This document shows positions 5,841 through 7,103 of a DNA stretch of 7,103 bases, piece by piece. The translations under genes and the position numbers were made by a program. The number at the start of each line of letters is the position of its first letter. The first letter of the stretch is position 1. The notes below the pieces were generated by a model. The model was given only the letters and a program-made list of their open reading frames with translations, was not told the DNA's origin and did not search any database. Origin of the DNA: a virus. Lineage: Duplodnaviria > Heunggongvirae > Uroviricota > Caudoviricetes. The stretch is from positions 1 to 7,103 of IMG/VR virus record IMGVR_UViG_2600254997_000006; one strand, written 5' to 3'.

Positions 5841-7103
5841 ATGGCAGTAAAGATTTCAGGTGTACTGAAAGACGGCACAGGAAAACGGCACAGGAAAACC
5901 GGTACAGAACTGCACAATCCAGCTGAAAGCAAAACGTAACAGTACCACGGTGGTGGTGAACACGGTGGCCTCAGAAAATCCGGATGAAGCCGGGCGTTAC
6001 AGCATGGATGTTGAGTATGGCCAGTACAGCGTCACCCTGCTGGTTGAAGGTTTTCCTCCTTCGCATGCCGGGACCATCACAGTGTATGAAGATTCTCAAC
6101 CGGGGACGCTGAATGATTTTCTCGGTGCCATGTCGGAGGATGACGTCCGGCCGGAGGCAATGCGTCGTTTTGAACTGATGGTGGAAGAAGCGGCGCGTCA
6201 CGCAGAGGAGGCGAAGAAGAATGCCGGAGAGGCGGAGACATCAGCGAGGAATGCTGGCATATCAGCCAGTCAGGCAGAAGAGAGCGCTGCAAATGCTGAC
6301 ACTTCAGCAGGGGATGCATCGGAGTCAGCCCGGCAGGCGGCAGAAAGTGCAGCCGCTGCAAAGCAGTCAGAGGAGGCGTCCTCGTCCTCGGCTTCTGCGG
6401 CCGCTCAAAAAGCCAGTGAGTCATCACAAAGTGCAGCAGATGCTGAATTGTCAAGAAAGACGGCAGAAAGTGCAGCCGGTAATGCAGCCAGGGATGCAAC
6501 GACCGCAACAGAAAAAGCCCGGGAGTCAGCAGAAAGCGCACAGTCAGCGGAACAAAGCAGGATAGCGGCGGAAGAGGCCGTAAACCGAATCCCCACCGTG
6601 GTGGGACCTCCCGGGCCAAAGGGGGAACAGGGGCCCGCGGGTCCTCAGGGGCCGAAGGGTGATAAGGGAGAGCGCGGTGACACCGGCCCAGTCGGGGCAA
6701 CCGGCGAACGGGGACCGGCAGGTGATGCTGGTCCGGCAGGCCCGCAGGGGCCGAAAGGTGACAGGGGAGAGCGGGGAGAGACCGGTCTGACGGGAAATGC
6801 AGGTCCACAGGGTCCAAAGGGAGATACCGGTGCGGCAGGTCCGGCAGGCCCACAGGGACCGAAAGGAGAAACAGGTGCGGCTGGCCCGGTGGGGGCAACC
6901 GGACCTCAGGGACCAAAGGGCGACCCGGGGGAGACACAAATCCGTTTTCGTCTGGGGCCGGCGAGCATTATTGAGACAAACAGCAATGGCTGGTTCCCGG
7001 GTACAGATGGTGCGCTCATCACCGGACTGACCTTTCTTGACCCCAAAGATGCCACACAGGTTCAGGGGCTGTTTCAGCATTTGCAGGTCAGGTTTGGTGA
7101 CGG
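5841..7103 (+). CDS. stf: Side tail fibre protein Stf, 5' portion (extends beyond the window), with an Ala/Ser/Glu-rich shaft and a collagen-like Gly-X-Y domain; reading frame broken by a 13-bp tandem duplication near the start
   Basis: ATG 5841 (GAGG 5-9 nt upstream) gives MAVKISGVLKDGTGK, matching the lambda Stf N-terminus as I recall it, but the frame then stops at TAA 5937-5939 (32 aa). From 5887 the adjacent frame is open to the window end and reads GTGKPVQNCTIQLKAKRNSTTVVVNTVASENPDEAGRYSMDVEYGQYSVTLLVEGFPPSHAGTITVYEDSQPGTLNDF..., continuing the Stf homology. The first in-frame ATG downstream is at 6004. Further on are Ala/Ser/Glu-rich low-complexity sequence and 37 consecutive Gly-X-Y triplets. 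Confidence 0.85.
5874..5899 (+). repeat. Perfect 13-bp tandem duplication (GGCACAGGAAAAC x2) inside the 5' end of stf
   Basis: Copy 1 at 5874-5886 and copy 2 at 5887-5899 are identical; period-13 identity spans 5872-5899. Removing one copy restores a continuous frame reading MAVKISGVLKDGTGKPVQNCTIQLKAKRNSTTVVV.... Confidence 0.9.
6604..6936 (+). repeat. Collagen-like repeat: 37 uninterrupted Gly-X-Y triplets within Stf, with internal imperfect DNA repeats
   Basis: In the stf frame: GPPGPKGEQGPAGPQGPKGDKGERGDTGPVGATGERGPAGDAGPAGPQGPKGDRGERGETGLTGNAGPQGPKGDTGAAGPAGPQGPKGETGAAGPVGATGPQGPKGDPGET. There is strict 9-nt periodicity, and GPAGPQGPKGD-encoding segments recur (for example ~6731-6760 and ~6838-6867). 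Confidence 0.9.

Follow-up and report, generated by a model that had tools for sequence, protein, structure and literature searches.

In laboratory lambda (lambda PaPa, or 'lambda WT'), the stf gene located after J and lom is frameshifted in comparison with Ur-lambda, and its remaining coding sequence is still recognizable. Hendrix and Duda reportedly traced this lesion in 1992 to a change of one base midway through the gene, which splits stf into orf401 and orf314. The frameshift prevents the synthesis and the assembly of side fibres (PMC12617516). In Ur-lambda, Stf residues 1-94 consist of a six-stranded antiparallel beta-sheet and a helix, and twelve copies of this N-terminal domain constitute a collar round the gpV/gpM junction, which attaches the fibres (PMC12617516).

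The EPclA collagen-like prophage fibres of pathogenic E. coli are composed of PfN, PCoil, Col, and PfC, in this order (PMC3368898). The defective lambdoid prophages of EHEC and EPEC, such as the Sakai Sp prophages and the PP4-like element of E2348/69 with nleB2, nleC, and nleD, constitute a pool of near-identical elements, with T3SS effector cargo and frameshifts in morphogenesis genes. In such pools of attaching-effacing E. coli, the near-identical lambdoid prophages have scattered defects, and co-resident prophages can complement or repair one another (PMC2669165). In simple-sequence-repeat contingency loci, long tracts of 1-8-nt units gain or lose copies, and the frame of a gene for a surface or adsorption structure is thereby shifted near its 5' end.

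The stf gene described here resembles each of these systems and differs from each. The sequence-only reading drew a parallel with laboratory lambda, and this parallel stands: the gene is the same and the expected outcome is the same. The lesion differs in type and position: here 13 bp are duplicated in tandem at codon 16, within the collar. The distal fibre also differs, with collagen and PfC of the EPclA type instead of a lambda-type gp37-like tip, and the prophage resides in a wild EPEC lineage rather than in a laboratory stock. The order and the length of the modules are those of EPclA (437 aa, PfC at 363-426), but this copy is untranslatable from its own start through the duplication. In the E2348/69 prophage, the tape-measure gene (H) and J are hit at other sites, and lom and stf are intact, whereas here stf, lom, and possibly J are hit. 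In contrast to the contingency loci, there are two copies of a 13-nt unit here, and there is no evidence of switching.

It is very likely that a real, recent, and lineage-restricted 13-bp tandem duplication near the 5' end pseudogenized stf in a decaying, effector-carrying lambdoid prophage, with slippage as the most likely mechanism. The allele is new, but the type of event, the frameshift pseudogenization of a prophage tail fibre gene by slippage duplication, is well known and ordinary, and includes no new mechanism. It adds one more documented case of decay of the tail/host-range module in effector-carrying lambdoid prophages of EPEC, and a natural parallel to the side-fibre loss in laboratory lambda. 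Its value is mainly in annotation and strain biology.

The contig and its stf gene

The window, which is the whole stretch of 7,103 nt analysed here, corresponds to the entire contig ALNX01000073.1 of the assembly GCA_000754045.1 from E. coli E851/71. It was identified by an exact look-up of the J product. The accession ALNX00000000 is cited for the enteropathogenic (EPEC) strain E851/71 (PMC3897749). The contig has a lambda-type tail-tip block in the order K-I-J-lom-stf. K (41-784) and I (682-1329) are followed, on the plus strand, by J, the central tail fibre gene (1390-5013), by lom (5178-5780), and by stf, the side tail fibre gene (5841-7103). The stf gene runs off the contig end, 64 nt short of the expected stop. 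The small tail-fibre assembly/C-terminal gene that follows stf in the E. coli strains DCE7 and E2348/69 and in phage cdtI lies beyond the contig end here. Between lom and stf, there is a terminator-like hairpin with a T-run (5803-5829, plus strand), and the ATG of stf (5841-5843) is preceded by the Shine-Dalgarno sequence GAGGTG (5832-5837, plus strand), whose duplex with the anti-Shine-Dalgarno sequence has an energy of -6.9 kcal/mol.

The assignment of stf depends on its place after J and lom and on the architecture of PF08400, collagen, and PF06820, that is, the PfN collar, coiled coil, collagen, and PfC of the EPclA type. It is supported by Pfam, PDB, and the alignment of orthologues. In the intact orthologue from DCE7, PF08400 matched residues 1-133 (E 5e-69), collagen 251-309, and PF06820 363-426. 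The window gene aligns to positions 8142-9455 of the DCE7 segment, and when one of the two 13-mers is removed, its product equals the DCE7 protein. The 'tail fiber protein' chain of PDB 9e7m/9mgh, which has 94 residues, aligns end to end with residues 1-93 of this repaired Stf (E 1e-53); the identity between this part and the solved chain of lambda is about 94%. The PF08400 collar domain begins at residue 1, which corresponds to position 1 of the profile. The lesion at codon 16 thus falls within the collar domain, the N-terminal part through which the fibre is attached to the tail.

The position of the start codon determines whether the duplication is coding. The sequence-only reading allowed that the Stf of this phage family might truly start downstream, with the upstream ATG non-coding; this was not borne out. 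RefSeq gives the gene in both DCE7 and E2348/69 as intact, with a product of 437 aa that is named 'prophage tail fiber N-terminal domain-containing protein' and starts at the same ATG, 33 nt before a single 13-mer. The Pfam match and the solved Ur-lambda chain likewise begin at Met1. A downstream start was considered also on the basis of phage cdtI, whose coding sequence is annotated from the ATG equivalent to window position 6004. It was rejected because the cdtI gene, with one copy of the 13-mer, is open for 437 codons from the same upstream ATG, and this reading is also against Pfam, RefSeq, and the solved structure. Because the upstream ATG is the true start, the duplication lies inside the coding sequence.

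In the 2007 record of phage cdtI (AB285204), the tail-fibre coding sequence (8771-9934) starts at an internal ATG, 150 nt past the conserved ATG. This start is probably mis-annotated, judging from the open upstream frame.

The 13-bp tandem duplication in stf

In the window, ATGGCAGTAAAGATTTCAGGTGTACTGAAAGAC is followed by two tandem copies of GGCACAGGAAAAC and then by CGGTACAG. The first copy (5874-5886, plus strand) starts 33 nt after the ATG of stf and is taken as the ancestral one, as DCE7, E2348/69, and cdtI have a single copy. The second copy (5887-5899, plus strand) is the duplicate. The dinucleotide AC flanks the 13-mer unit on both sides, so the perfect period-13 tract extends over 28 nt (5872-5899), and the exact breakpoint is ambiguous due to this AC microhomology. 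Tandem Repeats Finder reported a period-13 array at 5867-5899 with 2.5 copies and one indel. For units of 8-30 nt, the window has no other perfect tandem duplication, and none appeared when it was shuffled 300 times, which indicates that the duplication did not arise by chance.

The frame from the ATG is interrupted. Its first aberrant codon is codon 16, where CGG (5886-5888) is found in place of CCG, and it ends at codon 33 with TAA (5937-5939). The truncated frame (5841-5939, plus strand) comprises 32 codons before the stop and is translated as MAVKISGVLKDGTGKRHRKTGTELHNPAESKT. The rest of stf is in the +1 frame (5869-7101, plus strand), which has 411 codons without a stop and equals the intact DCE7 allele up to position 7000. 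These coordinates agree with what the sequence-only reading described, a tandem 13-mer, a TAA after 32 codons, and more than 400 codons in the adjacent frame.

DCE7 is the nearest relative. It is identical to the window over 5158-7000 (1.8 kb) except for the 13 bases. DCE7, E2348/69, and cdtI each have an intact stf frame of 437 aa, so that the comparison with related prophages proposed earlier gave a single 13-mer in every case. Relative to these three genes, the window gene has 13 additional nt, which is not a multiple of 3, and a premature stop. Because the frame from the conserved ATG is interrupted, stf of E851/71 is classified as a frameshift pseudogene of its family, not as a functional member.

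The same duplication was observed in a second assembly. The contig NKAA01000142.1 (1,770 bp, GCA_002461505.1), which belongs to a separate WGS project, was found through a look-up of the 200-aa frameshifted Lom product; the 213-aa ORF from the first ATG of lom has the wrong start. The contig has the same two 13-mers, at 808 and 821, with the ATG of stf at 775. Two substitutions and the absence of the T at 5157 are its only differences from the window over the 1,770 nt. In stf there is one synonymous difference between the two carriers, and the frameshift in lom is also the same. At the level of assemblies, the lesion is therefore real in DNA, as the same junction is present in an independent assembly. 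With the single copy in relatives and the common ATG start in the family, this substantiates the earlier view that the duplication is a genuine pseudogenizing mutation and not a base-calling error. The strain of NKAA01000142.1 may be a relative of E851/71 or another, re-sequenced stock of the same strain. If it is the same strain, an artefact is still excluded, but the spread of the allele in nature is no longer shown.

The ancestral sequence CTGAAAGACGGCACAGGAAAACCGG includes an imperfect direct repeat, GAAAGAC and GAAAAC, with a spacing of 13 nt, and the AC microhomology is at the junction. Replication slippage is the textbook route to short tandem duplications. Here, a nascent strand ending in GGAAAAC could have slipped back onto the upstream GAAAGAC, and the polymerase would then have copied GGCACAGGAAAAC a second time. 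As 13 nt is one base modulo 3, the frame from the ATG would shift at codon 16 and end after 32 codons, and the full-length side tail fibre of the E851/71 prophage would not be made.

Translation and distribution of the two-copy allele

The loss of Stf predicted from this frame could be avoided in two ways: the ribosome could restart at the in-frame GTG 5965, or it could slip by +1 on A-AAA-C (5895-5898). It is very unlikely that a functional Stf is still made in one of these ways. GTG 5965 (5965-5967, plus strand) is the only plausible restart, judged from the Shine-Dalgarno energy and the starts chosen by gene callers. The Shine-Dalgarno-like element GGTGGTGGTG upstream of it is comparable to the native one (-6.4 versus -6.9 kcal/mol), and the codon is located 26 nt past the premature stop. 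Due to this comparable element and the short distance, some truncated protein may be made. However, the product would be Stf minus residues 1-37. It is without Pfam profile positions 1-38 of the collar, matching only positions 39-133 of PF08400, and without the first strands of the solved beta-sheet. Without the first 37 residues of the collar, it should not assemble onto virions. From its modules, the product might still trimerize via PCoil and PfC (PMC3368898), but it should not form the collar.

Gene callers start at GTG 5965 on both carrier contigs. In annotation, the stf gene of E851/71 should be given as a frameshifted pseudogene, not as the protein of 379 or 400 aa from GTG 5965 that automatic callers give. 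The other in-frame candidates, GTG 5950, GTG 5953, and GTG 5956, have no Shine-Dalgarno sequence. ATG 6004, where reinitiation had been put forward as a point to check, is an in-frame candidate with a weak Shine-Dalgarno sequence.

As for the ribosomal slip, a shift of tRNA-Lys by one base downstream (AGG-AAA-ACC) would keep full pairing and lead into the wild-type frame. A +1 slip at 5895-5898 would restore it with a 4-residue insertion, RHRK, and a peptide specific to the slip would contain DGTGKRHRKPVQN. Against this, the site has neither a slow-decoding A-site codon nor a stimulatory element. It is also not conserved; the second copy created it, and it exists only through the duplication. 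The orthologues are read straight through, and the sole site with re-pairing in the right direction is a product of the duplication, unlike what is expected of a programmed frameshift. To our knowledge, efficient +1 shifting at such a site is not represented among established cases, such as prfB and Ty1.

Searches for the predicted proteins gave no exact match. The queries were the 32-aa peptide, six possible restart products (387, 400, and 405 aa, each in two C-terminal variants), the repaired Stf, and the repaired J. These results are uninformative: gene calling misses the short ORF on the source contig itself, and draft assemblies are interrupted within the collagen repeats.

The distribution of the allele was analysed with nucleotide queries. 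A 38-nt junction query (5868-5905), which shares no 28-mer with single-copy loci, had no match in 5,426 complete E. coli genomes and no match in 50,697 phage records. In a local control, this query matched the window, did not match the single-copy relatives, and survived the low-complexity filter. DUST masking as a trivial cause of the blank searches is ruled out by this positive control. A 71-nt query found 8,670 places in 3,133 records of complete E. coli genomes. Its full-coverage matches, sampled from the top to the bottom of the ranking, consisted of two overlapping pieces spanning 57-58 nt, which indicates a single copy; stfR of K-12 is among these single-copy matches. The 26-mer GGCACAGGAAAACGGCACAGGAAAAC is absent from the GTDB species representatives, IMG/VR, and the JGI metagenomes. 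Judged from these searches, the two-copy allele is rare and confined to one lineage. As the 26-nt junction scarcely occurs in public data, it could be used to mark the lineage.

This distribution bears on the second possibility offered by the sequence-only reading, a reversible switch. Such phase variation, in which the 13-bp unit would be gained or lost to turn the making of side tail fibres ON or OFF, we consider very improbable. Slippage can remove a tandem duplication exactly, and as stf is undamaged elsewhere, such a reversion would restore function. The intact downstream frame is explained equally well if the lesion is recent. Among thousands of homologous loci with the same 13-mer and the same flanks, none has two copies. 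Only two assemblies have the two-copy state, both carriers are in the same OFF state, and no other copy number was seen. There is thus no copy-number polymorphism among related loci of the kind that marks a contingency locus. Moreover, there are only two copies of a 13-nt unit instead of a multi-copy short repeat tract, and lom and probably J are also broken, so that switching stf alone would achieve little.

There is similarly little probability for a version in which the EPEC lineage keeps the two-copy allele as an OFF state that is prone to slippage, can revert precisely, and is perhaps leaky through a +1 slip at A-AAA-C. If this were true, the prophage could regain fibres or trickle them out and shift its adsorption range, and the locus would be a natural counterpart of the difference between lambda and Ur-lambda.

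Least credible is that the genome is single-copy in reality and that sequencing or assembly introduced the second copy into a short draft contig bounded by repeats: the 7.1-kb contig does end inside repeated prophage genes and has two private single-base insertions without a counterpart in relatives (a G in the run 4988-4992 and the T at 5157), but the same 26-nt junction is found in an independent WGS project with other contig boundaries and SNPs, and a perfect 13-bp duplication is not a homopolymer-type error and makes novel k-mers that no single-copy template can supply. The presence of the same duplication in independently generated sequences indicates a heritable allele.

Lesions in lom and apparently in J, and the mosaic contig

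With a heritable pseudogenizing duplication as the preferred reading, the stf lesion would be one step in ordinary prophage decay, as lom is also frameshifted and J apparently too. In lom, there is a 1-bp deletion at the G7 run 5654-5660, where the window has GGCGGGGGGGCTGG and E2348/69 has GGCGTGGGGAGCTGG. The true C-terminal frame of lom ends at TGA 5774-5776, and Pfam Ail_Lom matches the window gene only over profile positions 1-161 of 199. This lesion is common to DCE7, where RefSeq flags the gene as 'frameshifted', and to NKAA01000142.1. It is therefore real and older than the duplication in stf.

The lesion in J is at the G5 run 4988-4992, where DCE7, cdtI, and E2348/69 are one base shorter. 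As a result, the gene ends at 5013 and not at 5107, and its C-terminal receptor-binding domain is shorter by about 40 residues; Pfam Ig_GpJ_C is matched over positions 1-95 of 135. The exact J product is found only on the window contig. From the sequence, the frameshift in J may be a mutation private to this contig or an error in the draft. The T at 5157, in the intergenic region between J and lom, may also be a draft error. The window has TTGTCAG where relatives have TTGCAG, and this T is absent from DCE7, E2348/69, and the NKAA contig. A change in the length of a T-run was considered for this position and rejected, as the site is not a homopolymer.

The contig is a mosaic whose two parts meet between about 4500 and 5158. 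The left part (1-4500) matches an E2348/69 prophage except for 15 substitutions; that prophage adjoins torT and has nleB2, nleC, and nleD as cargo. Positions 5158-7000 correspond to the prophage of DCE7, a pig isolate, which adjoins potB and has espW as cargo. This structure could be the result of natural recombination among lambdoid prophages, or of a chimeric assembly of two co-resident prophages joined between 4500 and 5158. NKAA01000142.1 begins at window position 5066 and thus gives no decision between the two. That the prophage as a whole is defective is therefore a weaker claim than the one on stf: the frameshift in J and the extra T (5157) may stem from sequencing errors, and the contig could be chimeric.

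Within the collagen (G-X-Y) part of stf, a 45-nt tandem repeat (two copies, 82% match) is observed at 6799-6889. The ends of the NKAA contig (window position 6836) and of the window contig (7103) suggest that short-read assemblies tend to break in or just past the repeats of the collagen region.

Differences in J are observed also among the relatives. In E2348/69, J is a pseudogene, with G6 and A7 (at 9332 and 10022 of its segment) in comparison with the in-frame G7 and A8 at window positions 3333-3339 and 4024-4031. The two sister EPEC1 strains thus have different, independent homopolymer frameshifts in the same J gene. At window positions 3803-4495, J of the window and that of E2348/69 are about 300 nt longer than those of DCE7 and cdtI. 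The extra sequence is heptad-like and rich in Q, E, and S, and it looks like a coiled-coil insertion ahead of the tail-tip fibre domain.
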